From: a bacterium UBP11_UBA4055
GTDB taxonomy: Bacteria > UBA4055
Assembly: GCA_002382735.1 (NCBI GenBank)
Contig: DFZN01000043.1
Coordinates: 35,543-99,542 of the forward strand
Length of the DNA: 64,000 bases
Reading direction: 5' to 3'
Positions 17,401-43,440 of the stretch are shown here, piece after piece. Position numbers and translations under genes: made by a program. The first letter of the stretch is position 1; each line of letters starts with the position of its first letter. Below the pieces are notes generated by a model. That model saw nothing but the letters and a program-made list of their open reading frames with translations, did not search any database and had not been told where the DNA came from.

Positions 17401-18172
17401 CGGAATGTATCCTGTCCTCTTTTCTTGCAGCGCAGAGGTCTTTAATGAGATTCTTTACAAAATTTTCCCGGATCGAATTGAACGCTTCTTCCTCACGGAA
17501 TGCCTCTTCAAGTTTTTTTTGTACTATCTCCTTGACAGATTTGCATTCATCGAAGGGGAGCTTGTTTGAGAAAATATAATATATGACCATGCCCAGCGAA
17601 TACAGGTCCACTCTGTAATCAATATCCTTTTTAAGAAGGACTTCAGGTGCTATATATATCAGCGTTCCCCTGACTTTTCCGGAAAAATCCTCCACGAGAT
17701 TAGCGAGTCCGAAATCCATGACCTTTGCTTTAATTCCTTCCTTTTCCTTTATCAGAAAAATGTTGTCGGTCTTGATGTCAAAATGGATTATGTGCCTGTT
17801 ATGGATATAATTAAGACCTCTTGCGATCTGAAGAAGTATCTCCAGTTTTTCCTTGTAAGAAAGTTCCGGAAAAGCAGTTGTAAGGTTTTCCCCCTCAACG
17901 AACTCCATCGTGAAAAAATAGGTATCCGTATCTTTATATACATCAAGATCATATACTTTTATTATGTTCGGGTGTTTGAGCGCGCTTACGAGCTTGAACT
18001 CGTTCTTGAACCTGTCGATCGCCTTGTTAGAAAAGAATTTATCCTTGATGAGCTTCAGCGCGACGACCCTGTTCTCCACAAAATCCTTGACAAGGTAAAC
18101 ATTCCCCATACCGCCCTCTCCGAGAAGACGGATTATCTCATACCTGTCGTTTATTTTGCTTCCGGGCTCCAT
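14408..18172 (-). CDS. Ser/Thr protein kinase fused to a degenerate P-loop NTPase and helical repeats (1254 aa)
   Basis: LGEGGMG, VALK, HFDIKTDN, DFG, YIAPE; ENGNGKT (Walker A-like), LLIDD (Walker B); long alpha-helical C-terminus. Confidence 0.9.
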   Translation of the reverse strand: MEPGSKINDRYEIIRLLGEGGMGNVYLVKDFVENRVVALKLIKDKFFSNKAIDRFKNEFKLVSALKHPNIIKVYDLDVYKDTDTYFFTMEFVEGENLTTAFPELSYKEKLEILLQIARGLNYIHNRHIIHFDIKTDNIFLIKEKEGIKAKVMDFGLANLVEDFSGKVRGTLIYIAPEVLLKKDIDYRVDLYSLGMVIYYIFSNKLPFDECKSVKEIVQKKLEEAFREEEAFNSIRENFVKNLIKDLCAARKEDRIHSAQQLILYLETALEMNIREEEERIETIFNNEYYDKNNLLTELQDEYLNFCLRTEKRTGMLISVISENGNGKTQLMDSFNIKSQLNRIPSLYFTVEKEEGTVNIFFRKLIFGLIGFLDKNETSSGIFDKANALINTDGSFVQDRELIFKIRTVIKEIFDNLNTKQSILLLIDDITNLEDTGKDLMTFIFNLSVTSPLFVILSIDIDLVDRQECRLKSYEDIYYLIPPKRFYIENLKIIEIKKYISFLLRTAPENIDDKIIPYVMKESNGNMFLVKSYLEFLISHKYFNLKEGRYEFEFPENISYHSKIIDIYQARFANLSQNEKFIFLFIAGKFDEGANYDKIRHIFDIDDLRSIMSKLQRMSLIDFRIKRGDKYFFIKNENFTKVIRNVSKEDRQSFYDRLTEYYGAKKKRSLITYTYCLIKSSAEGRIKKKQLKETIEYCREHSLNIDRKNFLIFYYKSFNITTKTRVSILKDLYLLLISMGSFDEAFTYYKELLKNIKIPKRSAEYAQIISDSICFSRTQISLHKKSEFLKKASSVLKRTGDFDQYLKVFFKRLTFLTRTGRIKICRDLIEHELKKNSAVLDDTTLKAVSAVGVYFSNASLIQKSEIYLKLIHIYKYLEADFVYPAETLDINLALILDLIVTRKSRTAAELCETLLKNHSHDINKVEELTLKYLYANLMLRSGKLKRAYELLSAIEQISIKKTIGNNLITVISDKVEAMSNMRMSAAKVDIEFEKAITLGKRFRDYLGLFRIYSKYVNFLIGTGRWRDVEINIRFAMNLVSKVANKDEIKRFIVSLAYYHYIIKDPEGYDAYQKNILRIYPELENSPAMKVLLSQIELLFSMYSKEVTEKIIQELPKVSARYIKMLLLMKYFNNSANNYEGDRNNSRLTGLIGELKSSFSDTPHIYDYFDVIESLISENYAYSLKTTVKLGKENYAKGYIFDSYFPILSSFFYFRNRSQKRNAEFFEEKLNLLSEKLIGNMPSEKRENFQNKYWAI

Positions 18173-18181
18173 ACTGGCCTT

Positions 18182-19441
18182 CTATAATTTATCCGAGATC
18201 GGGTACATATCGATTATCTCTTCCCGTGATTTCCCGAGTATCCCGTACTTTTTCCCGACTTTAACGAACGCTTCGAGAGCCTTTTCGAGATGATGCTTCT
18301 CATGAGCTGCGGATATCTGTGTCCTTATCCTCGCTTTGCCTTTCGGCACTACCGGATAAAAGAATCCTGTCGCATATACGCCTTCCTCATACAGTGTCCT
18401 TGAGAAATCCTGTGAAAGTTTTGCGTTGAAGAGCATGACCGGAACGATCGGGCTTTGTGTTGGGGTTAAAATAAATCCTGCTTCCTGAAGACCGCTTTTC
18501 CAGAATTCCGTATTCTTGTCCAGTTTATCCTTCCTTTCTGACGAATGCATTATCATTTCCATCACCTTAAGCACTCCTCCCACGACCACCGGAGAAATGG
18601 AATTTGAAAAGAGATACGGCCTTGATCTCTGCCTGAGGATGTCGATTATTTCCTGCCTTCCGGAAATGCAGCCTCCTGACGCCCCGCCGAGAGCCTTACC
18701 GAAAGTAGTGCTTATGAGGTCCACCTCGCCCATGACATTCATAAGCTCATGAGTACCTCTTCCGGTCTTACCCATAAAACCTGTGGCGTGAGAATCATCG
18801 ACCATGACGAGAGCTTTATACATTTTTGCCAGCTCGCAGATCTTATCAACTTTCGCCACCGTTCCGTCCATCGAGAACACGCCGTCGGTTACGATAAGTT
18901 TTACCTTATAATCCCTCTCTTCCTCAAGTTTGAGCTGAAGATCGTCCATGTCGTTATTCGCGTATCTGATCTTTTTTGCCTTACAAAGCCTTGTACCGTC
19001 AATTATTGAGGCGTGATTCAGCGCATCGGTGAAGATCGCGCAGTCCTCGTCAAGAAGAGCTTCGAAAACACCGAGATTCGCATCAAAAGCGGACGAGTAA
19101 AGTATTGTGTCGTCCATGCCCAGAAAAAGCGACACCTTGTTTTCGAGCTCGACATGAATATCCTGGGTACCGCAGATGAACCTTACCGACGACATCCCGT
19201 AGCCTCTCGTTGTCAGAATATCCCTGGCCGCGGTTATTACATCAGGATGGTTCGACATGCCGAGATAATTATTCGAGCAGATGTTTACTATACCTTCGGA
19301 TCTTACTCCATTGGGATATTCGACATCGATATCCGCATACTGCGGAGACATTATCTTTCTTTCCTGTTTGTAAAGACTGCCTTCTCTGATCTGCTCAAGC
19401 TGATCAGTGTAGAACTTCTTCATTTCCCTGTCGAATGCCAA
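18182..19441 (-). CDS. kbl: Glycine C-acetyltransferase / alpha-oxoamine synthase, copy with canonical Kbl motifs
   Basis: CSNNYLG, SSVRFICGTQ, DALNHASIIDG.RLCKA, DDSH, TFGKALGG, ARIRTQISAAH. Confidence 0.9.
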   Translation of the reverse strand: MAFDREMKKFYTDQLEQIREGSLYKQERKIMSPQYADIDVEYPNGVRSEGIVNICSNNYLGMSNHPDVITAARDILTTRGYGMSSVRFICGTQDIHVELENKVSLFLGMDDTILYSSAFDANLGVFEALLDEDCAIFTDALNHASIIDGTRLCKAKKIRYANNDMDDLQLKLEEERDYKVKLIVTDGVFSMDGTVAKVDKICELAKMYKALVMVDDSHATGFMGKTGRGTHELMNVMGEVDLISTTFGKALGGASGGCISGRQEIIDILRQRSRPYLFSNSISPVVVGGVLKVMEMIMHSSERKDKLDKNTEFWKSGLQEAGFILTPTQSPIVPVMLFNAKLSQDFSRTLYEEGVYATGFFYPVVPKGKARIRTQISAAHEKHHLEKALEAFVKVGKKYGILGKSREEIIDMYPISDKL

Positions 19442-19512: not shown

Positions 19513-20760
19513 TTACTGGCCGTATTTTGCGATTATTTCCTGCTTTGTCTTTCCGAGTATGTCGAACTTTTTACCGACTTTTATAAAAGCTTCAAGCGCT
19601 TTTTCCAAATGATGCATCTCATGTCCGGCCGATATCTGCGTTCTTATCCTTGCCTGTCCCTGCGGAACTACCGGGAAGAAGAAGCCGATGGCATATATAC
19701 CTTCTTCATACAGTGCTTTTGAGAAGTCCTGGGAAAGTTTTGCGTTGAAAAGCATTACCGGAACGATCGGAGTATCTCCGTCCTTAAGAACAAAACCGGC
19801 TTCAGTGAGACCTTTTCTCCAGAATTCCGTGTTCTTTTCAAGCTTGTCCCTTCTCTCGGTGCTTTTGGAAAGAATGTCGAGAACCGTGTTCACGCCTGAA
19901 ACCACCACTGGAGCTATAGTGTTGGAGAAAAGGTACGGCCTTGCTTTCTGGCGGCACATTTCGACAAGTTCTTTTCTGCCCGATACACATCCGCCCGACG
20001 CTCCGCCGAGTGCTTTTCCGAAAGTGGTGGTAATAATGTCTATCTTGCCCATCACTCCGTATTTTTCGTGAGTTCCTCTGCCTGTTTTGCCGATAAAGCC
20101 TGAAGAATGGGATTCGTCAACAAAAAGCATCGCGTCGTATTTCTCACACAGTGCTGCCATCTCGTCCAGCTTTGCCGTATCTCCGTCCATTGAGAACACT
20201 CCGTCAGTGATGACTACCTTGAGCCTCTTGTCGGCATGAAGCTGAAGTTTTTCTTCAAGATGCGCCATATCGGAATGCTTGAAAGTGTCGTGCATGGCCG
20301 GCGCAAGTCTGATCCCGTCGATTATTGATGCGTGGACCAGCCTGTCGGAGATCATAACATCATCCTTGGTCAGTATAGCCTCGAAAACACCGGCATTCGC
20401 ATCCATGCAGGAAGGGAACAGGATCGTGTCCTCCGTTCCTAAGAATTCGGTGACCTTTCTTTCAAGCTCCTTGTGGATGTCCTGCGTTCCGCAGATGAAA
20501 CGGACCGATGACATGCCGTAGCCTCTTGTGTCAAGACCTTCGTGGGCAGCTTTGATCACATCGGGGTGGCTTGAAAGACCGAGATAGTTGTTCGCGCACA
20601 TGTTGATAACTTTTTTTAGAGCGGATCCCGTGGGGAATTCAACCTCTATGTCGGCTGCCTGAGAAGAGTGAATGTACCTTTCCTGCTTGAATATTCCCTT
20701 TTCCCTGATCTCATCAAGAGAGCCGTTGTATATGTTCCTAACTTTATCACTGTAAGCCAT
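19513..20760 (-). CDS. Alpha-oxoamine synthase (Kbl-like), ACP-linked copy
   Basis: CANNYLG, SSVRFICGTQ, variant DRLVHASIIDG, DESH, TFGKALGG. Confidence 0.9.
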   Translation of the reverse strand: MAYSDKVRNIYNGSLDEIREKGIFKQERYIHSSQAADIEVEFPTGSALKKVINMCANNYLGLSSHPDVIKAAHEGLDTRGYGMSSVRFICGTQDIHKELERKVTEFLGTEDTILFPSCMDANAGVFEAILTKDDVMISDRLVHASIIDGIRLAPAMHDTFKHSDMAHLEEKLQLHADKRLKVVITDGVFSMDGDTAKLDEMAALCEKYDAMLFVDESHSSGFIGKTGRGTHEKYGVMGKIDIITTTFGKALGGASGGCVSGRKELVEMCRQKARPYLFSNTIAPVVVSGVNTVLDILSKSTERRDKLEKNTEFWRKGLTEAGFVLKDGDTPIVPVMLFNAKLSQDFSKALYEEGIYAIGFFFPVVPQGQARIRTQISAGHEMHHLEKALEAFIKVGKKFDILGKTKQEIIAKYGQ

Positions 20761-20770
20761 ATCGGGTCTC

Positions 20771-21016
20771 CTACTTCAAAAATTCATTTACGAGTTTTAC
20801 GATCTTGGTCACGCTGTCGAAAGCTTCCGGAGTAGCTTTGTCGTCAGGTATTGAGATCTTGTATTTGTTCTCGAGGAACCTTTTTAATGATACCATCGAA
20901 AAAGAGTCCACGATGCCGCCTGAAATTAAAGGGGTGTCGTAGGTCAGCACTTCATCTTCGTCTTCGAGATATTCGTTTATTACATACTTCAGAACTACAT
21001 CTTTCATTTCGTCCAT
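20771..21016 (-). CDS. Acyl/aminoacyl carrier protein
   Basis: 81 aa, acidic, GIVDSFSMV phosphopantetheine site, PEAFDSV. Confidence 0.92.
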   Translation of the reverse strand: MDEMKDVVLKYVINEYLEDEDEVLTYDTPLISGGIVDSFSMVSLKRFLENKYKISIPDDKATPEAFDSVTKIVKLVNEFLK

Positions 21017-21054
21017 TTTGCTTCTCCTCCTGTTTTTTTTATTTTTTATGTTTT

Positions 21055-22764
21055 TTATTCGTCATCGAGCGTTGAAGTATCGCCTATGTCCTGACCCCAT
21101 TCCTGAGCCCTGAGCATCCTTCTCATGATCTTGCCGCTTCTCGTTTTAGGCAGCTTTTCTAAGTATTCGATCTCCTGAGGCATGGCGAGAGGAGACAGTT
21201 TTTTCCTGATGAAGTTCATTATCTCAAGCTCAAGGTCTTCATCCGGTTCGAATCCCGGTTTTAAAGTAACGAAAGCCTTAACTACTTCCATATTGACTTC
21301 ATCAGGCTTGGAGACCACCGCTGATTCCGCTACGGCGGGATGCTCGAGAAGCGCCGATTCGACCTCAAACGGGCTGACAAGGTGGCCGGCAGTATTGATG
21401 ACATCGTCGTCCCTGCCCACGAACCAGTAGTATCCGTCCGCGTCAACAGTTGATTTGTCGCCGGGCAGGTACCAGCCGTTGGCGAATTTCTTTTTATATA
21501 TCTCCTCGTTATTCCAGTATGCCCTCATCATAGCCGGCCACCCGGGTCTAAATCCGATCAGTCCGGGCTTGTTCGGTTCGGTGATCGGCTCAAAAGTCTT
21601 CTCGTCAATGACCGCGCCCGTAACGCCGGGGAACACTTTGCCCATCGAGCCGGGTTTGACCTTCATTCCGGGATAGTTGCAGATCATCATCGATCCGGTC
21701 TCGGTCTGCCAGTATGTGTCGTAGAACGGTTTGCCGAACACTCTCTGCGACCAGATGACCGCCTCTGCATTGAGAGGCTCGCCTACGCTCGCGAGATGCC
21801 TGAGCGAGCTCAGGTCGTACTGTTTTACAAGCTCTTCGCCGGCTTTCATCAGTGACCTTATCGCCGTAGGGGCAGAGTACCACATGGTCACTTTGTTCTT
21901 CTGTATGAATTTGTACCAGCTGTCAGCAGAGAAGCCGGCATCGAGAACGCACTGCGTCACCCCGTTCGACCACGCACCGATTATTCCGTATGATGTTCCA
22001 GTGACCCAGCCCGGATCCGCGGTGCACCAGTAAATATCGTCATCCTGCAGGTCAAGGACCCATTTAGCTGTAAGATACTGTGAGATTATCGAATAATGAA
22101 CATGCTTTACGCCTTTCGGCAGCCCGGTCGTTCCTGATGTATAGTGAAGCACCGAGGGCGACTCAGCTTTAGTCGGAAAGATCTCGAATTCGTCTATCCA
22201 TTCAGCTTTTTCAAGATCAAAAGCTTTTTCTCTCTCTTTAAGGGGCTTTAAACCGTCATGGTCGATTATTATTATATGCTCTAAGAACGGTGTTCTTTCA
22301 AGAAGCTTCCTTACTTTGCCGACATGCTTTCTCTGAGTGATTATAGCTTTCGTCTGAGCGTTCTCAAGCCTTACAAAAAGGCTCTCGTCCCCGAATGCGG
22401 AAAAAAGCGGCTGAGCTATTGCGCCTATCTTTAAGACCCCGAGAAATCCGAGATACAGTTCGGGAACTTTGTCCATGAACAAACAGACCCTGTCCTCGCT
22501 CTTTATCCCGATGCTCTTCAGGTAATGCCCTATCGTGTTGGTCGCTTTTCTGATGTCGTCGAATGTGTATCTTTTTTCTTCACCGCCGTGACCCTCCCAG
22601 ATAAGGGCTGTTTTCTGCGCTTTTCCCATTTTGCAGATCCTGTCGGTGCAGTGCCATCCTATGTTGATAACTTCGCCTTCTTTGTAGCCGAGCTCTTCTT
22701 CAGCCGTTTTCCAGCTGAAATCCTTCACTCTTTCTTCGTAGGAACCGATGTTTGACATATACAT
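21055..22764 (-). CDS. AMP-forming acyl-CoA/ACP ligase (acetate-CoA ligase-like)
   Basis: YTSGTTGLPKG, ADPGWVTG, SVGEPL, YWQTETG, GRDDDVI, LPKTRSGKIMRR. Confidence 0.92.
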   Translation of the reverse strand: MYMSNIGSYEERVKDFSWKTAEEELGYKEGEVINIGWHCTDRICKMGKAQKTALIWEGHGGEEKRYTFDDIRKATNTIGHYLKSIGIKSEDRVCLFMDKVPELYLGFLGVLKIGAIAQPLFSAFGDESLFVRLENAQTKAIITQRKHVGKVRKLLERTPFLEHIIIIDHDGLKPLKEREKAFDLEKAEWIDEFEIFPTKAESPSVLHYTSGTTGLPKGVKHVHYSIISQYLTAKWVLDLQDDDIYWCTADPGWVTGTSYGIIGAWSNGVTQCVLDAGFSADSWYKFIQKNKVTMWYSAPTAIRSLMKAGEELVKQYDLSSLRHLASVGEPLNAEAVIWSQRVFGKPFYDTYWQTETGSMMICNYPGMKVKPGSMGKVFPGVTGAVIDEKTFEPITEPNKPGLIGFRPGWPAMMRAYWNNEEIYKKKFANGWYLPGDKSTVDADGYYWFVGRDDDVINTAGHLVSPFEVESALLEHPAVAESAVVSKPDEVNMEVVKAFVTLKPGFEPDEDLELEIMNFIRKKLSPLAMPQEIEYLEKLPKTRSGKIMRRMLRAQEWGQDIGDTSTLDDE

Positions 22765-22813
22765 TTCTCCCTGATTTATTTTAATTATCTGTAAAGTTCG
22801 TCCAAAGAGAATT

Positions 22814-22842
22814 AATTTATGATTTTATTGCGTTTAAATCAA
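22814..22842 (-). promoter_or_regulatory. Possible internal promoter ahead of ligase-ACP-AOS genes
   Basis: Minus strand TTGATT-17 nt-TAAATT in a 110-bp AT-rich gap. Confidence 0.45.
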
Positions 22843-22874
22843 TCAAATTTTTATGTATTTAAGGGACAGTGTTT

Positions 22875-23489
22875 TTACCTTCCCAGATAATATTTAGCCG
22901 GCTCGTTGTCTTTATCCAGAATTATGACACTGCCGAAGATGAGTAGAGCTTCGTCCTTTTCGCCGTTTAAGAATTTACTTTCGGCGAGTATGTTCAAGAA
23001 TACGACATTCGTTGGAAAAATTGACACCATTTTTTCTGCTGTTTTTATTGCGAGATCATATTTTTTCTGCTTCATAAGAGCGACTGCGTACCAGTAATTT
23101 GCGTAATAGTTGTAATGATCTATTTTAAATACCTTTACAGATTGGATTTCGACCTTCTCCCATTCCATTTTAGCTACATTTATCAGATTTATAGTGTTCA
23201 GGACTTCGACTGAGTAGGGATAAATTAACAGAGCTGTTTCAAGATGTTTTTGAGCGTTCGAATAATTTCCGGAAAGATAATATAACCATCCGAGCCTGTA
23301 ATTTACCGTATAGCCTGAGGGATAATCCTTTATAACTTTACCGAGCGCAGAGATCGCCTTATCGTATTTCTGGCCCGTTTCAAATTTTATCGAGTTGTTG
23401 TAAGCCTCTTCCAGCTCTTTCTGCGTCATTTCTGCAACTAGTGATACAGTCGCAATAAAAAGGAACAGAATTAAGGATATTTTCTTCAT
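22875..23489 (-). CDS. Exported TPR protein
   Basis: Signal peptide MKKISLILFLFIATVSLVA; TPRs (YRLGWLYYLSGNY). Confidence 0.85.
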   Translation of the reverse strand: MKKISLILFLFIATVSLVAEMTQKELEEAYNNSIKFETGQKYDKAISALGKVIKDYPSGYTVNYRLGWLYYLSGNYSNAQKHLETALLIYPYSVEVLNTINLINVAKMEWEKVEIQSVKVFKIDHYNYYANYWYAVALMKQKKYDLAIKTAEKMVSIFPTNVVFLNILAESKFLNGEKDEALLIFGSVIILDKDNEPAKYYLGR

Positions 23490-24904
23490 TTTACTCTCCA
23501 GTTGTAGTTAGCCGTTATTGAATTCGTCAGTATGGTGTAGTCCTCAAAATCCGAAAAAGAAACCGTATAGCCCAGTATCCAGTCGCCGAACAGCTTTCTG
23601 AATATTACTCCGGCGATGATGTTGGTTTTAAGCTTTGAATCGTTCGTATTGAGATATCTGCCCTCGCCTGTGTTGACAAGGAATATATCGCCCTTCGAAT
23701 AGCTTGTAAAAATATCATAGTCTTCGCTTCTGAACCCCGCCGTGGCTCCGTAAAGAAATCTCGCGCCCCCTTTGACGATATCAGGTGAGAGCTCCGTAAC
23801 AAGAGTTTCTCTGTCGGAACTAAGCATGTCGGACGCATAATCCGAATCTATATCCTCAACTATATTCACTATGCCGCCAAGGAATACATAACCCAGATTG
23901 ACAGATCCGTCAAATGTAAACTGAAGAGAAGTGAAAGAATCCGTATATGTTTCGTATTTTTCCCCTCTGGGAAGGGGATTTACGACGAATTTGTAATAAT
24001 TGTAATTTATGCCTGAATAATTCACGAATGTGTCGCCACTGAAATATCTGCCTAACCCGAATCTTGCGCCGGCTGAAACTGCGCTCATGTTCTGGATATA
24101 GTCGTTCACGAGAATACTTCCCTTCAGCCCACCGTAAACTGTCAGAGCACGGTTCAGGGTATAATTGTACTGCCCGAAGAACTCGTACTGGCCAATATCG
24201 TCATAGAACAAAAACCCCCGCTCTTTGTTCATAGCAGGATCAATGCCCGTGCCCTGCAAAACGAAATTCGTGTTGAACCTGTGACGGGCTTTTCCGAAAT
24301 TATAGTTGATGTTGAAATTATAGCCGCCCAAAAGAAGCTCGTTACTGCCGTAGTCGTAGAAGGAGAATATTACATCTAAAAACCGCCTGTCCTCATTTAG
24401 CTTTGGAAGCAGAGTGGAGTAAGCCTTTCTGAATTCGTCCGAACCGAAACCGTCGCTTATTGCCTTGCCGTACCAGTCAGCCGTCTTCTGATAATAACCG
24501 GTCTGAGACAGTCCCCATCCCGTGAGAGAGTATATCTGCTTTTTTCTAAAATAATCACTACCCGATCTGAGAAGTTTTTCCGCATACGATGTTTTTCCGA
24601 GCAGCGCGTCAGAATAAATGACTCTGTCCTGATTCAATTCCGAATTGCTGAGCTTAAGAAGTTTATTGGCATATTTATTCGCAGTTTTGATCCCGCCTGA
24701 GTTTATACTCGCGTTGTATATACCTGTCATGGCTCCCGCATTCTCAGGATCGGAATTTTCAGCTTCGTAATAATATTCGAGTGCTTTTAACATATCGCCC
24801 TTAAAATAAAATTCATCGCCTTTTACAAGCAACTGTTCTGACCCTGTTGCCGCAAAAATATTCCCCAAAGCTGATAATAGTACTACAAAGAAGAAACATT
24901 TCAT
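23486..24904 (-). CDS. Exported protein: N-terminal TPRs plus probable outer-membrane beta-barrel
   Basis: Signal peptide, TPR region, then amphipathic strands (YNFNINYNFG, YEFFGQYNYT, WILGYTVSF) and terminal YNW. Confidence 0.65.
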   Translation of the reverse strand: MKCFFFVVLLSALGNIFAATGSEQLLVKGDEFYFKGDMLKALEYYYEAENSDPENAGAMTGIYNASINSGGIKTANKYANKLLKLSNSELNQDRVIYSDALLGKTSYAEKLLRSGSDYFRKKQIYSLTGWGLSQTGYYQKTADWYGKAISDGFGSDEFRKAYSTLLPKLNEDRRFLDVIFSFYDYGSNELLLGGYNFNINYNFGKARHRFNTNFVLQGTGIDPAMNKERGFLFYDDIGQYEFFGQYNYTLNRALTVYGGLKGSILVNDYIQNMSAVSAGARFGLGRYFSGDTFVNYSGINYNYYKFVVNPLPRGEKYETYTDSFTSLQFTFDGSVNLGYVFLGGIVNIVEDIDSDYASDMLSSDRETLVTELSPDIVKGGARFLYGATAGFRSEDYDIFTSYSKGDIFLVNTGEGRYLNTNDSKLKTNIIAGVIFRKLFGDWILGYTVSFSDFEDYTILTNSITANYNWRVK

Positions 24905-26979
24905 ATCTTTGTTATCCTTATCTCTTTCCCGCCGGACATTATACCCACTTCTCTTATGCCTTTTCGCTGACAGAGCTCAGCTTCCGTCCGGGCTGACACC
25001 TTACCGTTCTTCACGATCCTTCCCGTTACCTTTTTGCCGTCATGTTTTGCGTAGAATCCCTTCTGGCTGCTTAGACCGGTTCCGAAAGATTTTATTAAGA
25101 GAGGAATTCTTGAACTTCTAAGCACATTTTCAGGAATATATTCGTTCCATTCTATATCGTCGTCGTCGGAAAACGGGACAGAGGGAAGCGCGAGGAAAAA
25201 ATATCGTAAGGCTGAAGTATAATTCCCGTCGTATTTGAAGAAAACGAACCTGCCTTTATCGGTACCGAAGTACAATCTGCTTCCTTTGCCGTCGGAAAAA
25301 TAATATGTGCCTTCTACTTCCATCCCGACCTTTAATGTCAGATCGGATATTACCCTGCCGTTTTCTGTCACTTTATAGCTGAACTGCTCATCGAGAACGA
25401 ACTGAAGTTTTCTCGAAAGCGTTTTCGAAGTGACGAGCGGAATGACCGTGTCGTTCTTTGAAAGATATTTTGCATCTGTATCCTTTCCGTTGACCTTGAG
25501 AGAGTTGAAGGCGAATTCTATGCCGGGCGTTCCTATCAGATGATTAAGTTGTACCTGAACATGAAGGTGAGGCTCGGGCGAATAACCTGAATTCCCGCAT
25601 TCGGCTATGAGCCGGCCTTTTGTAATCTGGTCGTTCTTTTTGACTCTGACCGAACCCTGTTTCAAATGCGACAGTTCGACATAATATCCCGGATAAACAT
25701 AAATTATGATATAATTCCCCCAGTTGCTGGATTTATCGACCTCGCCTATCTCATTGTCGTCAAGGTCGTCGAACACTTCGACTACCGTACCGTCGGCCGG
25801 AGAGAGTACGGGTTTTCCGAAGCAGAAATAATCCTCTCTTTTTGACCCGTCGCCGGAAAATGTTTTACCGTTCTCCGAAATAACGAAGTCGTACGCATAT
25901 TTCCAGAACCCTTTGTGCGTCCACTCGCCGTCAAATCCCTGATAAACAGTCCATTTACCGGAGAACGGCAGCCTGATCGAAGGCGTGACCCAGTCGAACC
26001 TGTTCGAATAGTTGAGGTGGTCAACGAGCGCCATCTCAGGCTGTTCGAGGCCGGTTGAGTTCATCATCACATATTTCACGCTTCCGAGAACATAGATGTA
26101 TAAGAGCACAGTAAGGTTGAACGGAAGGGTGAATACCGGTATGCCGAAGGAGATCCAGAACACAGATGCGGCGTCAATGATGAAGACCGAGCCGAGTACT
26201 GCCGTCAGGGTCAAGAGGTATGTCCTCTTGGACGGTATCAGGAACATTCCGCCGAGAGCAGCGCCGACGAGTATGAAGTTGAATGAGGATATTTCGGCGA
26301 AAGCGAGCGGGATGCTTCCCTTTAACAGAGACAGGAAAAATATTCCTGCGTAATACGAAGCGACGGCGGAAAAGAATGTAATTCTGGAGTACAGAAGTAT
26401 CGCGAGCAGAAGTATCAGTCCCACGATGTCGTAAGGCATGAATATCAGTATGCCGGCGGCGCGTAGGAGACCCTGTACATATCCGGGCAGAAAGTCGAGG
26501 TTAAAATATTCCTGCTTATAGAATGAGTCGACGATAAGGCTGCTGTATTTACCTGAAGCAAGATATATTATCGTAGCCGAGATCGTGAAAGGGATGTTGA
26601 GCACCGGCAGTTTGAAGTACAGATACAGCGCAGAACTTATGGTATATGTGAGAAGGACGGTAAATATGCTCATTCCGACTGCCAGCAGCATCGAAAGGTA
26701 AGTTACCTTGAATATGAACCCGACAGCGAACCCGGTCAGAAGCGCGTTGTAGGTGAGAAGCTTGTTGACAGGATCATCCTTTTTTATTCCGATGAATCTG
26801 GAGAATAATAGAGCGGTGATCAGCCCGATAATTCCCGTAAGAGCTATATTTCTGTTGAACAGTGTCGCAAAGAAAAGAATGAGGCCGAGCGCCTGATTTC
26901 TTATGAAGAACAGGTTGGAGTAGGCGTGGAGCAGTTCTCGAATGAACTCAGCGGCCTTCGAAGCTCTTTTTTCTTCCAT
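24901..26979 (-). CDS. Urea-transporter-like membrane domain fused to an M23 peptidase domain
   Basis: ~300-aa polytopic N-terminus (YNALLTG, LPVLNIPF, IPVFTLPFN); M23 motifs H..YAYD, SHLKQGS, GNSGYSPEPHLH. Confidence 0.85.
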   Translation of the reverse strand: MEEKRASKAAEFIRELLHAYSNLFFIRNQALGLILFFATLFNRNIALTGIIGLITALLFSRFIGIKKDDPVNKLLTYNALLTGFAVGFIFKVTYLSMLLAVGMSIFTVLLTYTISSALYLYFKLPVLNIPFTISATIIYLASGKYSSLIVDSFYKQEYFNLDFLPGYVQGLLRAAGILIFMPYDIVGLILLLAILLYSRITFFSAVASYYAGIFFLSLLKGSIPLAFAEISSFNFILVGAALGGMFLIPSKRTYLLTLTAVLGSVFIIDAASVFWISFGIPVFTLPFNLTVLLYIYVLGSVKYVMMNSTGLEQPEMALVDHLNYSNRFDWVTPSIRLPFSGKWTVYQGFDGEWTHKGFWKYAYDFVISENGKTFSGDGSKREDYFCFGKPVLSPADGTVVEVFDDLDDNEIGEVDKSSNWGNYIIIYVYPGYYVELSHLKQGSVRVKKNDQITKGRLIAECGNSGYSPEPHLHVQVQLNHLIGTPGIEFAFNSLKVNGKDTDAKYLSKNDTVIPLVTSKTLSRKLQFVLDEQFSYKVTENGRVISDLTLKVGMEVEGTYYFSDGKGSRLYFGTDKGRFVFFKYDGNYTSALRYFFLALPSVPFSDDDDIEWNEYIPENVLRSSRIPLLIKSFGTGLSSQKGFYAKHDGKKVTGRIVKNGKVSARTEAELCQRKGIREVGIMSGGKEIRITKI

Positions 26980-26991
26980 GCTCTCCCGCTG

Positions 26992-28344
26992 TTACAAATT
27001 AAATTTTCTTAGTTTGTCAGGCACGAACTCCGGTCCTGTAATGTCCTCGAGCTTTTCTGCCCGCCTGATCTGCTCAAGCTTTCCGTCCTCCATTATCATC
27101 GCTACTGCCGGACGGTAGCGGATGAACTGCATCCACTGCGTCACATTATATGCGCCCATGGGCGACAGGATTATCCTTGTCCCTTTGGGCAGAGGAGGAA
27201 GAAACGCGCTTTCTGCGACGACATCGATATTCATGCAGAGCGGACCGTACAGTATGCTGTTCTCGTACGCGCCGTGAAGCTCGCGGTCTATCTCGACCTT
27301 GTAGTTGTACCAGGCTGAAGTGTAGAGCAGATTCACGCCGGCGTCGATGATGTAGGACTTCGTCCCGTCGGGCAGGCGCTTGACCGCATCGACGGTTGAG
27401 ATAAGCCAGCCGGCCTCGTCCACTATAGCGCGCCCGGTCTCGAGATACACATCCGGATACTCGTCCGGCGCGAGCTCGTCAAGAAGCGTGTCCGCCACGG
27501 CGTCGATGAAATTCTCGACGGGCTGGACGGCGACTTCGGGCGGAAGATAGGTCCCTTTAAGTTTGTTGTTCGAAGGAAAACCGCCCCCGAAATCGAGGTA
27601 CGATATTGTTATTTCAAATTCATGCTCTATCTTCCGCATCAGCTGCACAACTTTTTTCACTGCCTCTTTGTACGCGTTTGGATCCATCATGAATGTACCT
27701 ATGTGGCAGTGTATCCCCTCGAGGTGCAGATGTTCGCTGTGAGAGATCCTCTTCACAGCGTTGAAGGCGCCGTTGTTCTCGATCGGGAAGCCGAAGCGCG
27801 ACCACTGCGGATAAACTCCCGTGTCCATGTTGACCCTTATGCCGACGGAAACTTTTTTCCCGACTTTTTTTGCGGCTTCCTCCGCCTTGATGATCTCGTC
27901 AAAATTGTCGAGGTTCACCATCGCGCCGTCGGTAAAAGCGGTCACGAGAGAATCCAGCGGCTTATACGGTCCGTTGTAGATTATCCTGTTACCCGGCACG
28001 CCGAGGCTCCTCGCCTTTTCGTACTCGAAGTCGGACACGACCTCGGCAGTCTCACCCTCTTGGTGCAGGATCGAGCATACCGCGCCGAGATAGTTCGTCT
28101 TGTAGGACCAGCTCATCTTCGCTTTCGGGTACTTGCTGGAGAAATATGAATAAATTTTCCTGTACCTTTCCCTTATCACCTTCTCGCTCAGGACGAAAAC
28201 GGGGGATCCGAACTCATCGGTGAACCTGCCTATGGGAATTCCTTCGATGTCCTCCCTGTGGCCTTTGTTGTATGTCACACCGAACTTGTTCATCACTCCG
28301 GCCGACTGTCTTTTTATGTATGGTTTGATGTATTCTTTTTTCAT
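26992..28344 (-). CDS. Fold-type III PLP enzyme (DAP/Orn/Arg decarboxylase family)
   Basis: SYKTN (PLP Lys), HCHIGT, DFGGGF, ETGR, GPLCMNID, GAY. Confidence 0.9.
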   Translation of the reverse strand: MKKEYIKPYIKRQSAGVMNKFGVTYNKGHREDIEGIPIGRFTDEFGSPVFVLSEKVIRERYRKIYSYFSSKYPKAKMSWSYKTNYLGAVCSILHQEGETAEVVSDFEYEKARSLGVPGNRIIYNGPYKPLDSLVTAFTDGAMVNLDNFDEIIKAEEAAKKVGKKVSVGIRVNMDTGVYPQWSRFGFPIENNGAFNAVKRISHSEHLHLEGIHCHIGTFMMDPNAYKEAVKKVVQLMRKIEHEFEITISYLDFGGGFPSNNKLKGTYLPPEVAVQPVENFIDAVADTLLDELAPDEYPDVYLETGRAIVDEAGWLISTVDAVKRLPDGTKSYIIDAGVNLLYTSAWYNYKVEIDRELHGAYENSILYGPLCMNIDVVAESAFLPPLPKGTRIILSPMGAYNVTQWMQFIRYRPAVAMIMEDGKLEQIRRAEKLEDITGPEFVPDKLRKFNL

Positions 28345-29393
28345 TTTTTCACCTCTCCTGATTCGCCGTAAGTGCTTATCTGTTCAAAATCGGATATGTC
28401 TTTTACAAGTTCGTTGGTGTATCTGATCATCAGTTTGCCGCTTTTGTAGTCAGAATGAGTTTCAAACTCCTGACCCGTTAAAAGTTTTACCATTCTCGCA
28501 GGCAGATTTATCCCGCATCCGGCCGGAAAATACACCCATGCAGGGAATCTCGGGTTTATCTCGAGCACATAAATGTCCTGAGTTTTGTTCTCCATGAGCA
28601 CTTCGAACTCGAACCCGCCGCGCCATTTCAGGCCGCTCACGACCTTTTTTGTAGCCTCGATCAGCCGCTCGTTCCTTATGCTGACGGCGTTCCATACCTT
28701 ACCGAGCTTGGTTATTGTCATCTTGCGGATAGCGAAAACGCCCATGTCGTTGCCTTTGCCGTCCCCGCAGCCTATCACATCGTATTCGTCGCCCTGAATG
28801 AACTTCTGGGCTATGATCGGGTAGCCCCATGCGGCCGCGATCTTGATAAAATAACCTTCAGCCTCGCCGGGTGAAGTCGCCTTGAACGCTTCATAGAACG
28901 GGCCTTTGACCATGCAGGGAAAACCGAGCTTCTCTGTGGCCTTGTGCAGGTCGGAAAGTGATGTGCAGCTTATGTATTCCGGTGCTTTCACGCCTATTTT
29001 TTCCGAAAGTTCTTTCAGTTTGAGTTTGTCCCTTAGTCTGAACATCTCCTTTGTGGGTATCAGCATCTTTATGCCCATTTCCACCAGCACCGGCTCGATA
29101 TCCATATAGATCGGAAGTTCGGCGTCTAAAGCTGAGATTATCACATCAAGGTTTTCTTTTTCGTGGATATCCCTGATACGCTCGATAAATGCTTCTTTAC
29201 TGCCTGACGGATATGGCATTATGTAACTTTTGTCTATTATGTGATCAAGATATATTCCAGGTTCAAGAGCGTCGTAGGCAAGACCGATCGCCCTGATCTC
29301 CATCCCGCTTTCCTTAAGCGCACGGCATATTCCGGCACCCGGCCCCGGATTGTCTATCGTATTAATTCCGCTCACCGCGACTGTTATTTTCAT
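28341..29393 (-). CDS. ATP-grasp ligase
   Basis: DKL, PCMVKG, QKFIQGDE, FEFE, LEINPRF. Confidence 0.9.
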   Translation of the reverse strand: MKITVAVSGINTIDNPGPGAGICRALKESGMEIRAIGLAYDALEPGIYLDHIIDKSYIMPYPSGSKEAFIERIRDIHEKENLDVIISALDAELPIYMDIEPVLVEMGIKMLIPTKEMFRLRDKLKLKELSEKIGVKAPEYISCTSLSDLHKATEKLGFPCMVKGPFYEAFKATSPGEAEGYFIKIAAAWGYPIIAQKFIQGDEYDVIGCGDGKGNDMGVFAIRKMTITKLGKVWNAVSIRNERLIEATKKVVSGLKWRGGFEFEVLMENKTQDIYVLEINPRFPAWVYFPAGCGINLPARMVKLLTGQEFETHSDYKSGKLMIRYTNELVKDISDFEQISTYGESGEVKK

Positions 29394-29402
29394 ATTAGCC
29401 GC

Positions 29403-29648
29403 CTAAACAAGAAAATATTTTTTGAGATTTTCGACAAAATCCTGAATATCGACAGTTACTTCATCGTCGGAAGCCTCGAATTCATCCATGATCGCCGACT
29501 TTATCTCATCCTCTTCCTTACCCGCCTTCAGAAGCTCAAGGATCTTAAGCCCGGTCGCGTTAGCTGTGTACGAATGACCCGTCACAGGATCGAAAATGAA
29601 GCCGCTGTCGCTTATTGCAAGTACCGATAATTTGTCTCTGTCCATCAT
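29403..29648 (-). CDS. Stand-alone PqqD/RRE-family protein
   Basis: 81 aa; beta-strands FIFDPVTGHSYTANATGLKILELL then helices EIKSAIMDEFE..EVTVDIQDFVENL, the PqqD wHTH pattern. Confidence 0.85.
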   Translation of the reverse strand: MMDRDKLSVLAISDSGFIFDPVTGHSYTANATGLKILELLKAGKEEDEIKSAIMDEFEASDDEVTVDIQDFVENLKKYFLV

Positions 29649-29827: not shown

Positions 29828-30250
29828 TTATTCTTTTATCAGATTCACTGTAAAAATATAATCAGTTTTAATTTCGCACTTTTTATTTTCGGTGTTAGTT
29901 ACGACTAACTTAAAAGCGATGTTTGTAGTCTTCTTTATCTTTATCAGTTCTTTTATCATCGAGATATTGAAGTGCCTAGTCGGTTCTTTGTTAGGATCGA
30001 TAAAAACGGTTCGCTTTAGAATTTCTTTACCATCATCCAAAAGGCAAACATCGATAGTTTTGAGCTTTAAATCCTTTTTATAATTTGTAGTTCTGAATAA
30101 AAAACTCAAAGGGAAAATCGCTTCACCTGTGAAATTTTTGCTGACTTTTGCATTTAACTCATTTACCAAACCAACAATTGTATGTTTGCCACCGATTTCA
30201 CTTCTTATATCGTCACAAACTATCACATCATTTAATTTAATATTTTCCAT
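29828..30250 (-). CDS. Beta-rich hypothetical protein (DUF6941-like), third gene of the TA operon
   Basis: VIVCDDIRSEIGGKHTIVG. The start at 30250 (SD GGAGA) overlaps the antitoxin 3' end by 14 nt. Confidence 0.7.
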   Translation of the reverse strand: MENIKLNDVIVCDDIRSEIGGKHTIVGLVNELNAKVSKNFTGEAIFPLSFLFRTTNYKKDLKLKTIDVCLLDDGKEILKRTVFIDPNKEPTRHFNISMIKELIKIKKTTNIAFKLVVTNTENKKCEIKTDYIFTVNLIKE

Positions 30251-30866
30251 TTTGATCTCCTGCGTTATAATCATTACTGCTTTCTTTTACCATCTTATAT
30301 TTCTGTTCCGTAACTATGTAACCATTTTCGCTAACAGCGATCAATGAAACAGCGGAAGCATTTGAAATCTCCGGACTTGCATATTTATTTCTTTCAACAA
30401 GATCGAACTTCTTCATCGCTGCCTCTTTGAATACAGCATCAGTATATTTTTTATCGAACTTACGGGCGGCTACATAAATGATCCATGGATAACTTCTTAT
30501 AACCCTTAACAGAGTTAATCCAATAGCTGAATAATTCAATCTGCTTTTCCACCTTGAGAGTGTGCGGACAGGCAATCCCAATGAATCTTCAATATCCTTA
30601 AGTTTTATATTCTTCTTATTAAAGAATTCAAGAATATTCTTTATTGAGCTTTGCTCAGATATTTTCTGAGCTTTTTCATATTCATCTGTGTAATTCAGCG
30701 TGAAGTTTATTTCATCACCGCATTTCTTGCATCTCAATATTTTTTCTTCAAACTCAACTATTTCACCGAAAGGCACATACTCTGTCTGCTTTTCAATTAC
30801 AGAAGTAAAACTTTCGTTTCCGCAGTAATTGCATTTGATATTTTTCCCATTCAGCTTCATAATCAT
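30237..30866 (-). CDS. MqsA-like antitoxin: Zn ribbon + XRE HTH + ~70-aa C-terminal extension
   Basis: CNYC...CKKC, LKDIEDSLGLPVRTLSRWKS, LLRVIRSYPW. Confidence 0.8.
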   Translation of the reverse strand: MIMKLNGKNIKCNYCGNESFTSVIEKQTEYVPFGEIVEFEEKILRCKKCGDEINFTLNYTDEYEKAQKISEQSSIKNILEFFNKKNIKLKDIEDSLGLPVRTLSRWKSRLNYSAIGLTLLRVIRSYPWIIYVAARKFDKKYTDAVFKEAAMKKFDLVERNKYASPEISNASAVSLIAVSENGYIVTEQKYKMVKESSNDYNAGDQNGKY

Positions 30867-30874
30867 TCCTTTCT

Positions 30875-31282
30875 TTAGATCAATCCCAGTTCGCGCAACT
30901 GCCTTCCCAGATCTGTTTCTTTTTTTCCGTAACCTTCATCATACTTCTTAAACGATTTTATAACCCATATTCCGGTATATTCTGAAAGATAAAACGCAAG
31001 ATAACCGTCAATAAACTTGTAAACGAACATATAAGAATCTACTTTCGGTGGCGGAGTTTCTGATGTCTTTTCCAAATCCCGGGTTTTGAGGTATTTCAAC
31101 TCTTTTATATTTAAATTTATGACCGCAGAGAATAATTCATTCTTATTATCGATACCGAAAACAGACTTTGCATCCTCAATAACCTTTGTCTTGATCTCTA
31201 CGGTATTTTTGCCATTCATTGCAAACTTACACGCTGTCTTCAATTTGCCGAATTCATAATATGGTCCCGATTTTGCCAACAT
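30875..31282 (-). CDS. MqsR/RelE-like toxin (putative)
   Basis: GPYY N-terminus, DSY, YLAF, VIKSFK; lies directly upstream of the Zn-HTH gene. Start is likely 31282. Confidence 0.65.
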   Translation of the reverse strand: MLAKSGPYYEFGKLKTACKFAMNGKNTVEIKTKVIEDAKSVFGIDNKNELFSAVINLNIKELKYLKTRDLEKTSETPPPKVDSYMFVYKFIDGYLAFYLSEYTGIWVIKSFKKYDEGYGKKETDLGRQLRELGLI

Positions 31283-31294
31283 TTCTTCCCGTTT

Positions 31295-31336
31295 ATACAC
31301 GGAATGTATTATAATGATACACAACACGAAATGCAA
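31295..31336 (-). promoter_or_regulatory. Consensus promoter of the TA operon with overlapping palindrome
   Basis: TTGCAT-17 nt-TATAAT (31336-31308); palindrome ATACA-cggaa-TGTAT at 31295-31309. Confidence 0.75.
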
Positions 31337-31514
31337 GAAGATTTATTAATTTCTTTTTGGCGGCGGGAAACAAATTGTGGCGACAGTGTATCTACAATCG
31401 TATATTACTTGAAATATTTATTACTTATATAAAGTCTAACTTACTAAGAACAACCTACCCCAACACATAACCCGCAAGGATCTTCTGCACTTCATAAATA
31501 TGATACTTTTCCCT

Positions 31515-31557
31515 TTGACTTTACAGAGGATTTACTTTAAATTGATACTGTAAAAGT
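31515..31557 (+). promoter_or_regulatory. Promoter of the DUF4365-like cassette, framed by an inverted repeat
   Basis: TTGACT-17 nt-TAAATT; TTTACAG (31520-31526) / CTGTAAA (31548-31554). Confidence 0.55.
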
Positions 31558-31579
31558 GAAAAAGAGAATAAAATAAACC

Positions 31580-32095
31580 ATGATGACTGAACAACATATA
31601 AAAGAAGCAATCTCTAAGAAATTTATAGGCTTAATTGCTTCAAAGTGCGGATATTCTACCTCTGAACCTTCTCAAGATTACGGTAGAGATTTATCAATTG
31701 TTGAAGTTGGTATCAGGAACGAAAATAATAAATCCAGATATTCTGAAACCGGTAGAGAACTTAAATTTCAACTTAAGGCTACAACTGAAAATTCTGTAAT
31801 TGTATCAGACGATAATCTTAAATATGATCTGGAAGCAAAAAATTACAACGATCTAATTATGAGACGCAATACGAAAAGTCCGCTTATTCTTGTGCTTTTT
31901 ATACTCCCGACAAATCAGACTGAGTGGCTGATTGTGTCAGAAAACGAACTAATTTCAAAAAAATGTGCTTATTGGTATATTCCTCAACAAAACGAAGCAA
32001 CAACAGAAAACACCGATACTAAACGAATCGTAATTAATAAAAACAATCTTGTAAATCCTGAGTCATTAAATCAACTGTTTGAAGAGTACGCATGA
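31580..32095 (+). CDS. DUF4365-like PD-(D/E)xK nuclease-fold protein
   Basis: DYGRD, FQLKAT, YDLEAKNYNDL, PLILVLFILP, CAYW. Confidence 0.85.
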   Translation: MMTEQHIKEAISKKFIGLIASKCGYSTSEPSQDYGRDLSIVEVGIRNENNKSRYSETGRELKFQLKATTENSVIVSDDNLKYDLEAKNYNDLIMRRNTKSPLILVLFILPTNQTEWLIVSENELISKKCAYWYIPQQNEATTENTDTKRIVINKNNLVNPESLNQLFEEYA

Positions 32096-33189
32096 TGAAT
32101 AACGAAATCATTTACAAAAATATTAACGATTTACTTTCGGGCAGAAATTGGACTTTGGCTGATACGAAAAGTAAATACGACATTTATTTACCTCCGCAGG
32201 ATTTGAACTTTGAAAACAGCTATAAGTTATTTCTATACAATAAACCCGATTTCTCAGATTACGAATCCGAGATAATAAAAATTCTTGAAATATTATCCCA
32301 AATATATAAAGAAGACCCTGACGAATTGGCTTCGATAGTAATTGAGGACCGTCAGATATTATCTTTGCATATCTCAGATGACGACAAACTGGATGAAAGA
32401 CCAAGCATACCATTTTTCGATAATTTAATCCATAAGGCTAAAGAGCTGCTTCAGGAAAATGCGAATTTTACTGTCATGCAACAGGCACACCTCTTTGACA
32501 GATGCGAAGAATCCGAAAGATACCTGAATTACTGCAACTTTTTCAAAAATGATAAAGGTAGTTTAATAACCAAGATTCAGCTCCCTAACAAAGAAGAAAT
32601 AAAAGAAAGCAATCTTTTTAACAAACCTATTACCGGCAACTCTATAAACAACAGACTAATGCAAATAACTAAATTCATTAATGACAAAATAATTACAGCT
32701 GACAATTATGAGCCGGATGATGCATTTCTATTAAAAAATCAGGATAATATCAGTGTTAATGTGTCAGGGAAATTAAGAGAACTCTATCTCGGCGTAGATT
32801 TAGCCGACATGGAAATAACACTTAACAGCACAGAGAAAAAACAAACTACTTTTGTAAAGAATCTTACTAAAGACAGCGTAGAAAATTTAAATAAATTCTC
32901 GAAAGTAATACGGGAAAGAATGAAAGAAATATTAGACGATCAGTTTGTAGGAAAAGTAGTCAAACTGGAATCTAAAGATATCGAAAGCGACAAAAATAAA
33001 GTCTATGTTTTAGCTGAAATCAAAAAGATAAAAAAGAATGTACTCGTTTATCTTGACTCTGACGATTATCAAACAGCCATAGAGGCGCACAAAAACAATA
33101 AATCCGTATTAGTAAACGGAACAATTGAAAAAGAAAAAACTCAATACAAAGTCACAGAGCTAAAATCGTTCAAAAAACTCTCGGAATAA
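32092..33189 (+). CDS. Hypothetical protein coupled to the DUF4365-like gene (365 aa)
   Basis: ATGA overlap with the upstream stop; C-terminal OB-like strands FVGKVVKL...DYQTAIEAHKNNKSVLVNG. Confidence 0.8.
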   Translation: MMNNEIIYKNINDLLSGRNWTLADTKSKYDIYLPPQDLNFENSYKLFLYNKPDFSDYESEIIKILEILSQIYKEDPDELASIVIEDRQILSLHISDDDKLDERPSIPFFDNLIHKAKELLQENANFTVMQQAHLFDRCEESERYLNYCNFFKNDKGSLITKIQLPNKEEIKESNLFNKPITGNSINNRLMQITKFINDKIITADNYEPDDAFLLKNQDNISVNVSGKLRELYLGVDLADMEITLNSTEKKQTTFVKNLTKDSVENLNKFSKVIRERMKEILDDQFVGKVVKLESKDIESDKNKVYVLAEIKKIKKNVLVYLDSDDYQTAIEAHKNNKSVLVNGTIEKEKTQYKVTELKSFKKLSE

Positions 33190-33216
33190 ATCGGTAAAAT
33201 AAAACCCAAGAGACGC

Positions 33217-35018: not shown

Positions 35019-35021
35019 CTA

Positions 35022-35588: not shown

Positions 35589-35591
35589 AAA

Positions 35592-36666: not shown

Positions 36667-36673
36667 AAATGAA

Positions 36674-39293: not shown

Positions 39294-39448
39294 TGAATCA
39301 TTCCTGTTTTCAGTATTGAAGTAAGATTATCCGCAATCTGTTTGCGGTTAAGCTTATCATATTTTGCATTAAATGGATCTTTTTTATCGAAATCTAGTTT
39401 TTCTGAATTTGACATAATTCTGCCTTATGTAATTATTTATAACCATTC

Positions 39449-42253: not shown

Positions 42254-42338
42254 AAACTACTCCGTTCTTTGTAGTACTAAAGTGTAATATTACGATAATA
42301 TAAGGACTTGAACAGTATTTCGCAATTCAATTAATTCT

Positions 42339-43436: not shown

Positions 43437-43440
43437 GATT

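Follow-up and report, generated by a model that had tools for sequence, protein, structure and literature searches.

The 64,000-nt window analysed here, the whole stretch of contig DFZN01000043.1 from position 35,543 to 99,542 (bacterium UBP11_UBA4055, assembly GCA_002382735.1), carries ten collinear genes on its minus strand from 29648 to 18182, starting with a PqqD-like gene and ending with the second of two alpha-oxoamine synthase genes. They make up two separately conserved, undescribed modules, which are neighbours here by lineage-specific synteny. The first is a six-gene envelope cassette built around an ATP-grasp ligase and a pyridoxal phosphate (PLP) decarboxylase. The second is a block in which an AMP-forming ligase, an acyl carrier protein (ACP), and the two synthases lie together.

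The cassette opens with an 81-aa PqqD-like protein (29403-29648) that matches Pfam PqqD PF05402 at 44.4 bits (cut-off 23.4), so that the RiPP recognition element (RRE) expected of RRE-dependent pathways to ribosomally synthesized and post-translationally modified peptides (RiPPs) is present. This start of the operon lies outside the interval 20771-29393 to which the initial annotation was confined. The cassette core follows, consisting of a 350-aa ATP-grasp ligase (28341-29393; Pfam ATP-grasp_3 and CPSase_L_D2) and a 450-aa fold-III (alanine-racemase-fold) PLP decarboxylase of the FigC/FslC kind (26992-28344; Orn_Arg_deC_N at 117 bits and Orn_DAP_Arg_deC), whose open reading frame (ORF) overlaps the ATP-grasp stop by 4 nt. 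Next comes a 692-aa fusion of a urea-transporter-fold membrane domain, an M23 metallopeptidase, and a C-terminal domain (24901-26979; Pfam UT 167.6 bits, Peptidase_M23 50.9 bits). The last two genes encode secreted proteins: one of 472 aa with an N-terminal signal peptide as its single hydrophobic segment (23486-24904), in a position hereafter called slot X, and a 204-aa TPR protein that also has a signal peptide (22875-23489; Pfam TPR families). All junctions from the PqqD gene to the TPR gene are 4-nt overlaps or gaps of 10-12 nt.

An AT-rich spacer of 110 nt (22765-22874), the sole long intergenic gap within 29648-20771, separates the cassette from the second module; no terminator-like site was found in it. 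Beyond the spacer lie an AcsA-like AMP-forming acetate ligase of 569 aa (21055-22764; NCBIfam PRK04319, 762 bits, cut-off 729), the 81-aa private ACP with the motif GGIVDSFSMV (20771-21016), which has only sub-cut-off NCBIfam matches, and two Kbl-like alpha-oxoamine synthases of 415 aa (19513-20760; TIGR01822, 572 bits, cut-off 493) and 419 aa (18182-19441; TIGR01822, 584.5 bits). The initial annotation grouped the ACP with the ATP-grasp ligase and the decarboxylase, as a counterpart of BtrI, BtrJ, and BtrK in butirosin biosynthesis. The three families are indeed encoded on the minus strand, as their Pfam and NCBIfam matches and coordinates confirm. However, they do not form a triad, because four unrelated genes intervene, and 5.9 kb separates the ACP gene from the ATP-grasp/decarboxylase pair.

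The cassette has a distribution of its own. Orthologues of the ATP-grasp ligase, 45-92% identical, occur in at least 591 species and in more than 12 phyla. All window proteins were compared with 80 ATP-grasp loci from more than 12 phyla, sampled from Aquificota, Thermodesulfobacteriota, Desulfobacterota, Verrucomicrobiota, Planctomycetota, Lentisphaerota, Cloacimonadota, Fibrobacterota, Calditrichota, Leptospirales, Campylobacterota, and Thiomargarita. The block that recurs in these loci comprises PqqD, ATP-grasp, decarboxylase, UT/M23, a variable secreted protein, and TPR. In 76 of the 80 loci, PqqD is found some 250 nt before the ATP-grasp start; the remainder are cut by contig ends, apart from L077, whose PqqD is a diverged copy missed by tblastn. 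The gene is thus found in every locus with a complete upstream part. UT/M23 is conserved in 63 loci and TPR in 50, about 5.4 kb downstream of the ATP-grasp start. Slot X keeps its position while its sequence diverges between phyla. In other phyla its product measures roughly 290 or 480 aa, the shorter form being that of Aquificota and Thermodesulfobacteriota, and a Verrucomicrobia locus (L066) has one of about 484 aa. A phmmer search with the 472-aa protein returned no match outside Delongbacteria. In one locus (L008), an insertion of about 4 kb splits the decarboxylase gene from UT/M23.

All-against-all clustering of the ORFs of the 80 loci revealed no conserved neighbour beyond the six families, and the ACP, the AMP-ligase, and the oxoamine synthase were all absent from the conserved set. 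Outside the phylum of the window's own organism (at least 70 loci), no ACP accompanies the cassette. Full-text searches turned up no paper that joins PqqD and ATP-grasp to a urea transporter and M23, and none that combines an RRE and ATP-grasp with a PLP decarboxylase. The six-gene envelope cassette therefore appears undescribed; it is self-contained and works without a nearby ACP.

Presence and absence of the two modules in whole genomes agree with this picture. Nine of 11 cassette genomes from other phyla have no homologue of the ACP anywhere, and the other two have only matches of 30-33% identity. Only in close Delongbacteria relatives does the ligase/ACP/synthase block come after the cassette, and even there the arrangement varies: the cassette is missing upstream of the ACP block in L097, L099, and L101, and a 7-kb insert separates the two in L103. 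Whole-genome searches found dissociation in both directions within the family, genome G016 having the cassette without the ACP and genome G018 (95% complete) the ACP module without the cassette. In four further genomes (G020, G022, G028, and G029), cassette and ACP module lie on different contigs.

These data decide against the butirosin-like explanation, in which the ATP-grasp ligase would load an amino acid such as Glu onto the ACP, the decarboxylase would act on the aminoacyl-ACP, and the oxoamine synthases would consume the product. Several observations make it attractive. A single strand carries every one of the families within 11.5 kb, with no terminator-like site between them, the cassette/ACP adjacency recurs in some close relatives (L002/L102, L098, and, after the 7-kb insert, L103), the ACP resembles specialised carriers more than AcpP, and BtrK-type enzymes belong to the same diaminopimelate decarboxylase (DAPDC)-derived group as FigC. 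However, neighbourhood together with presence and absence rules out the nearby ACP as a BtrI-type carrier, since at least 70 cassette loci of other phyla do without it and the two modules dissociate both ways. The ACP is also invariably paired with an AMP-forming ligase, and with acpS in other phyla. BtrK itself is a distant relative of the cassette decarboxylase (74-75 bits, against 190 bits for FigC), the synthases are of the acetyl-specific Kbl type, and none of the six cassette genes matches the monooxygenase, acyltransferase, or gamma-glutamyl-cyclotransferase families to which BtrO/V, BtrH, and BtrG belong. As a whole, this explanation is very improbable. Two proposals of the initial annotation are accordingly not supported: that the ATP-grasp ligase loads the nearby ACP, and that a decarboxylated product feeds the oxoamine synthases. 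The ACP always has the AcsA-like ligase and a Kbl-like synthase as its neighbours.

The ACP module in turn shows consistent internal associations. ACP and synthase 1 are adjacent in all ten family loci. The ligase adjoins the ACP in seven of them and stands 4.5 kb off in L101; in L104 and L106, contig ends cut it off. The family order is AMP-ligase, ACP, synthase 1, synthase 2, Ser/Thr kinase, Hsp20, and Lon. Identity of the ACP is 84-100% among family members and 85-93% in Bacteroidales and Zixibacteria, where the order is acpS, AMP-ligase (567 aa), ACP, and oxoamine synthase (415 aa), with no cassette nearby (L107, L109, and L110). AMP-ligase, ACP, and alpha-oxoamine synthase are thus adjacent and co-inherited in the family, in Bacteroidales, and in Zixibacteria. 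In Zixibacteria, an SDR/epimerase-type gene, possibly encoding a threonine dehydrogenase, stands just before acpS. Among the family loci, L101 (G028) has the 4.5-kb insertion between ligase and ACP, and L103 (G023) has its 7 kb between TPR and ligase.

The initial annotation was right to place the ACP nearer to specialised carriers than to fatty-acid ACP. The protein has no Pfam match, and its best NCBIfam matches, all below cut-off, are ACP_for_OlsHI (62 bits), AmcB (36 bits), DltC (27.5 bits), and AcpP (25.7 bits); the OlsH/OlsI paper held no useful information on the ACP_for_OlsHI family. The AcsA-like AMP-forming ligase is the likely loader of this carrier. Its closest solved relative is Bacillus subtilis AcsA (9g79, 568 bits), and it keeps the acetate-pocket residues of Salmonella enterica Acs (V310, T311, V386, and W414). 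Against the PDB, synthase 1 scores highest with Kbl (7bxp at 466 bits and 1fc4 at 436 bits), followed by serine palmitoyltransferase (233 bits) and cysteate acyltransferase (179 bits).

A ligase, a carrier, and a synthase in this order recall sphingolipid synthesis of the Caulobacter type, in which the AMP-forming ligase AasR loads the private carrier AcpR and serine palmitoyltransferase uses the acyl-ACP. The gene order of the ACP module is the same. The module differs from the AasR/AcpR system, and from the Tdh-Kbl pathway, in combining an acetate-pocket ligase with Kbl-type synthases. A sphingolipid or sulfonolipid function for the block was considered and is ruled out by the ranking of Kbl (466 bits) over serine palmitoyltransferase (233 bits) and cysteate acyltransferase (179 bits), together with the acetate pocket. 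Because the ligase has this pocket and the synthases are Kbl-type, the acyl group handled by the module is probably C2 and not a fatty acid, and the product is probably not a sphingoid base. The ACP module seems to represent acetate/Kbl chemistry run on a carrier protein, a version not yet described. With the AMP-forming ligase, and not the ATP-grasp enzyme, as the likely loader of the ACP, this carrier is no counterpart of BtrI for the ATP-grasp/decarboxylase pair.

The decarboxylase of the cassette raises a separate question of identity. The initial annotation held that it was probably not the housekeeping LysA, and several lines of evidence bear this out. Although the lysA model TIGR01048 is its second-best NCBIfam match, the enzyme scores about 202 bits against it, below the cut-off of 297.9. 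Among solved structures, FigC/FslC (7kh2) is closest at 190 bits, followed by Aquifex LysA at 146 bits and BtrK (2j66 and 7ru7) at 74-75 bits. With LysA it shares the fold, the PLP lysine, the HxH, GGG, and EPGR-like motifs, and the catalytic Cys. K82, H212/H214, GGG, E302-x-G-R305, and Cys370 are invariant among its orthologues, and judged by these residues the enzyme is catalytically complete. Unlike LysA, it lacks the Arg that binds diaminopimelate (DAP) and the acidic residue beside the catalytic Cys, and it carries an extra conserved tail of 35 aa.

The substrate pocket is where the resemblance to FigC is closest. Two hallmarks have been named for FigC: T327, T330, and Y331 take the place of DAPDC Arg343, which binds the distal carboxylate of DAP, and Met355 replaces the acidic residue beside the catalytic Cys (PMC7857480). 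The cassette enzyme has Thr342, Trp345, and Tyr346 at the positions of T327, T330, and Y331, and its Cys370-Met371 aligns with FigC C354-M355; all these residues are invariant in 25 orthologues. Both hallmarks are thus present, a small neutral residue standing on the specificity helix instead of the Arg and a Met following the catalytic Cys. FigC, SbnH, AcsE, MccE, and BtrK form a DAPDC-derived group that decarboxylates amino acids already conjugated (PMC7857480). Phylogeny, which the initial annotation had called for, gives the same grouping. In a maximum-likelihood tree with LysA, FigC, and ornithine decarboxylase (ODC)- and arginine decarboxylase-like paralogues as comparators, 17 cassette decarboxylases from 17 loci form one clade with a Shimodaira-Hasegawa-like approximate likelihood ratio (SH-aLRT) support of 98. 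This clade is sister to FigC (SH-aLRT 99, subject to a long-branch caveat) and stands apart from 11 LysAs, ten of them from the same genomes. By sequence, then, the decarboxylase is FigC-like and not LysA. In one Chitinispirillaceae locus (L019), a second fold-III decarboxylase-like ORF lies beside the cassette enzyme and lacks the conserved N-terminal tail.

A rival explanation is that the decarboxylase is nonetheless the organism's own LysA, recruited into the operon. The initial annotation had suggested looking for a separate lysA, and none was found: although dapA and dapF are present and completeness is 97.9%, nothing in the window's genome exceeds the lysA cut-off, and its other two fold-III enzymes are ODC/lysine decarboxylase-like and SpeA-like. 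These facts and the second-best rank of the lysA model favour recruitment. Against it stand the invariant Thr in place of DAPDC Arg343, the Met where DAPDC has an acidic residue next to the catalytic Cys, the separation from LysAs in the tree, and the presence of a canonical LysA (337-550 bits) alongside the cassette enzyme in nine of 14 genomes outside the family, a tenth lying just below the cut-off. Within the family, G016 has both the cassette and a canonical LysA, and G018 has neither, so loss of LysA is a lineage trait uncoupled from the cassette. Relatives G001-G004, like G018, are also without lysA, in contrast to G016. An external supply of lysine, or some other route to it, is probably required in this lineage. 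Residues, tree, and uncoupled LysA presence rule out the decarboxylase as a LysA, and recruitment into the operon is hardly credible. That the two modules are independent and that the decarboxylase is not LysA is a joint conclusion held with high confidence.

Comparison with known systems helps to define what the cassette may do. BtrK, CtaF, and FlvO act on an aminoacyl-ACP made by an ATP-dependent ligase (PMC11350588). The cassette shares with BtrI/BtrJ/BtrK, as with CtaE/D/F and FlvL/N/O, an ATP-dependent ligase beside a DAPDC-derived fold-III decarboxylase of a kind that acts on conjugated and not on free amino acids (PMC11350588; PMC7857480). It differs in having no co-inherited carrier protein, the nearby ACP belonging to the other module, and in a decarboxylase only distantly related to BtrK (74-75 bits). 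It also lacks partners of the BtrO/V, BtrH, and BtrG type and has instead PqqD/RRE, UT/M23, and two secreted proteins. With neither a co-inherited carrier nor a BtrK-like decarboxylase, the interval does not represent a BtrI/J/K system. What survives of the likeness drawn in the initial annotation is the abstract logic of ligation followed by decarboxylation, which is plausible, whereas the nearby ACP as carrier does not survive.

A nearer parallel is the FigA/FigC (FslA/FslC) route to rhizoferrin in Francisella, with the related enzymes SbnH and AcsE. FigC is both the closest solved relative and the sister clade of the cassette decarboxylase, and the two enzymes have in common a Thr instead of DAPDC Arg343 and a Cys-Met pair in the catalytic loop. 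In the Fig route, amide formation comes first and is followed by decarboxylation of the conjugated amino acid, and the same sequence is proposed for the cassette. However, the cassette ligase is an ATP-grasp enzyme and not an NRPS-independent siderophore (NIS) synthetase, for which none of the six cassette genes gave a Pfam or NCBIfam match. FigC His357 and Thr330 correspond to Ile373 and Trp345 in the cassette enzyme; given these substitutions, the acyl part of the cassette conjugate is probably not citrate. The cassette also has no siderophore transport genes and has RRE, UT/M23, and TPR genes instead. By analogy, it would work most like FigA/FigC, with ATP-grasp replacing the NIS synthetase and with an RRE, UT/M23, and envelope proteins that belong to no described pathway.

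The ATP-grasp ligase offers less guidance. Its AlphaFold2 model has a pLDDT (predicted local distance difference test score) of 85, and in fold it comes closest to 2pn1 (function unknown), biotin carboxylases, PurK/PurT, and an L-amino-acid ligase. Searching the PDB by profile and by fold gave generic relatives only and no substrate clue. Equally, an Rfam search for riboswitches over 13-31 kb of the window and seven loci gave no match, and hence no clue to a ligand.

For the remaining cassette proteins, conserved residues point to function. The paired pore motifs of the UT domain are conserved, as are the PHxH, H, and D metal-ligand residues of M23. Urea-channel topology places a domain that follows UT on the cytoplasmic side of the membrane. 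The fusion protein has no hydrophobic segment past residue 293 and none between the UT and M23 domains. Since no membrane segment follows the UT domain and given this topology, the M23 peptidase domain is predicted to be cytoplasmic.

In the proposed mechanism, the first module (29648-22875) would begin with the ATP-grasp ligase joining a carboxylate to an amino acid through an amide bond. The decarboxylase would then strip the alpha-carboxylate from the conjugated amino acid, as FigC, SbnH, MccE, and BtrK do. The PqqD protein may hold a peptide-like handle or bridge the ATP-grasp ligase and the decarboxylase, M23 would cut an amide, and the UT-fold domain and the two secreted proteins would pass the product outward. 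In the second module (22764-18182), the AcsA-like ligase would load the private ACP with an acetate-sized acyl group, and a Kbl-like enzyme would use or make the acyl-ACP thioester with glycine. Ligation followed by decarboxylation is plausible as the most economical reading of the ATP-grasp/decarboxylase pair, because the pocket is FigC-like and the two genes overlap by 4 nt. The two-module explanation as a whole, proposed chemistry included, is considered fairly probable. The specific chemistry suggested for the cassette is tentative and, taken alone, less likely than not to be right in detail.

Several points weigh against this account. Every chemical step in it is read from family membership. 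The fold matches of the ATP-grasp ligase are generic, with template modelling (TM) scores of 0.6-0.7 to biotin carboxylase, PurK, PurT, and L-amino-acid ligase, and the enzyme could carboxylate or formylate an amine, using bicarbonate or formate, rather than attach an amino acid. The cassette decarboxylase might conceivably have a side activity on DAP, as the genome has dapA and dapF but no canonical LysA. Finally, because the spacer contains no terminator-like site, both modules may share one transcript in this genome.

The universal presence of PqqD/RRE in the cassette invites a RiPP-like alternative. Here, the RRE would present a ribosomal peptide encoded elsewhere, the ATP-grasp ligase would add an amino acid, the decarboxylase would trim it as MccE does, M23 would process the peptide, and the UT-fold domain would release it. 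MccE, a fold-III decarboxylase that acts on a peptide conjugate and falls in the same clade as FigC and BtrK, and the conserved metal ligands of the M23 peptidase both fit this scheme. A precursor is harder to find. Clustering of the loci gave no conserved ORF of at least 35 aa outside the six genes, and the 600 nt preceding PqqD, compared in 75 loci, contain no widely shared ORF of 10-60 aa, so that over the 75-80 loci neither the cassette nor its upstream flank offers a conserved small ORF. Urea-channel pores are too narrow for peptides, and sequence conservation of 45-70% across phyla is unusually high for a RiPP pathway. The RiPP-like alternative is thus unlikely, and two modules with ligation and decarboxylation of a conjugate in the first remain the preferred explanation.

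Another possibility places the handle within the decarboxylase. Cassette decarboxylases share a 35-aa N-terminal extension, MKxxYEKPxIxKLxxGxMNKFG, which LysAs of the same genomes lack and in which Y5, P8, N19, and K20 are invariant. AlphaFold gives residues 1-28 of this tail a pLDDT of 33-51 and no secondary structure. Its YxxPxI motif resembles the leaders bound by the RREs of lasso-peptide pathways. The tail, with its invariant Lys20, might be gripped by PqqD/RRE and presented to the ATP-grasp ligase for attachment of an amino acid. The decarboxylase would then act on the residue tethered to its own tail, after which the cytoplasmic M23 domain would set the product free where the urea-type channel opens. 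This is a speculative proposal that is rather improbable. If true, it would amount to a carrier logic like that of BtrI or LysW, except that the carrier would form part of the enzyme and be recognised by an RRE.

The surroundings of the ten genes differ on the two sides. Directly upstream of the cassette lies a low-GC block (29828-43451; 31-36%, against about 45%), which contains a trio of 153-, 209-, and 148-aa proteins ending with a DUF6941 protein, and a DUF4365 protein with a 365-aa partner. After oxoamine synthase 2 come a 1254-aa protein with an N-terminal Ser/Thr kinase (14408-18172), Hsp20 (13983-14387), and Lon (11589-13961), an order that is kept across the family (L097-L102 and L105).

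Separating the two modules removes a tempting but wrong annotation, that of a butirosin-like aminoacyl-ACP pathway feeding oxoamine synthases. The hosts of the cassette number hundreds of species, from Aquificota to Verrucomicrobiota, and its genes are currently labelled 'carbamoyl-phosphate synthase large subunit', 'diaminopimelate decarboxylase', 'urea transporter', or 'hypothetical'. The cassette unites parts not known to cooperate, namely an RRE, a conjugate-acting decarboxylase, and a urea-channel/M23 fusion. Its product, once identified, would give a function to many hypothetical or misnamed genes, and it could reveal a new use of RREs outside RiPP biosynthesis.

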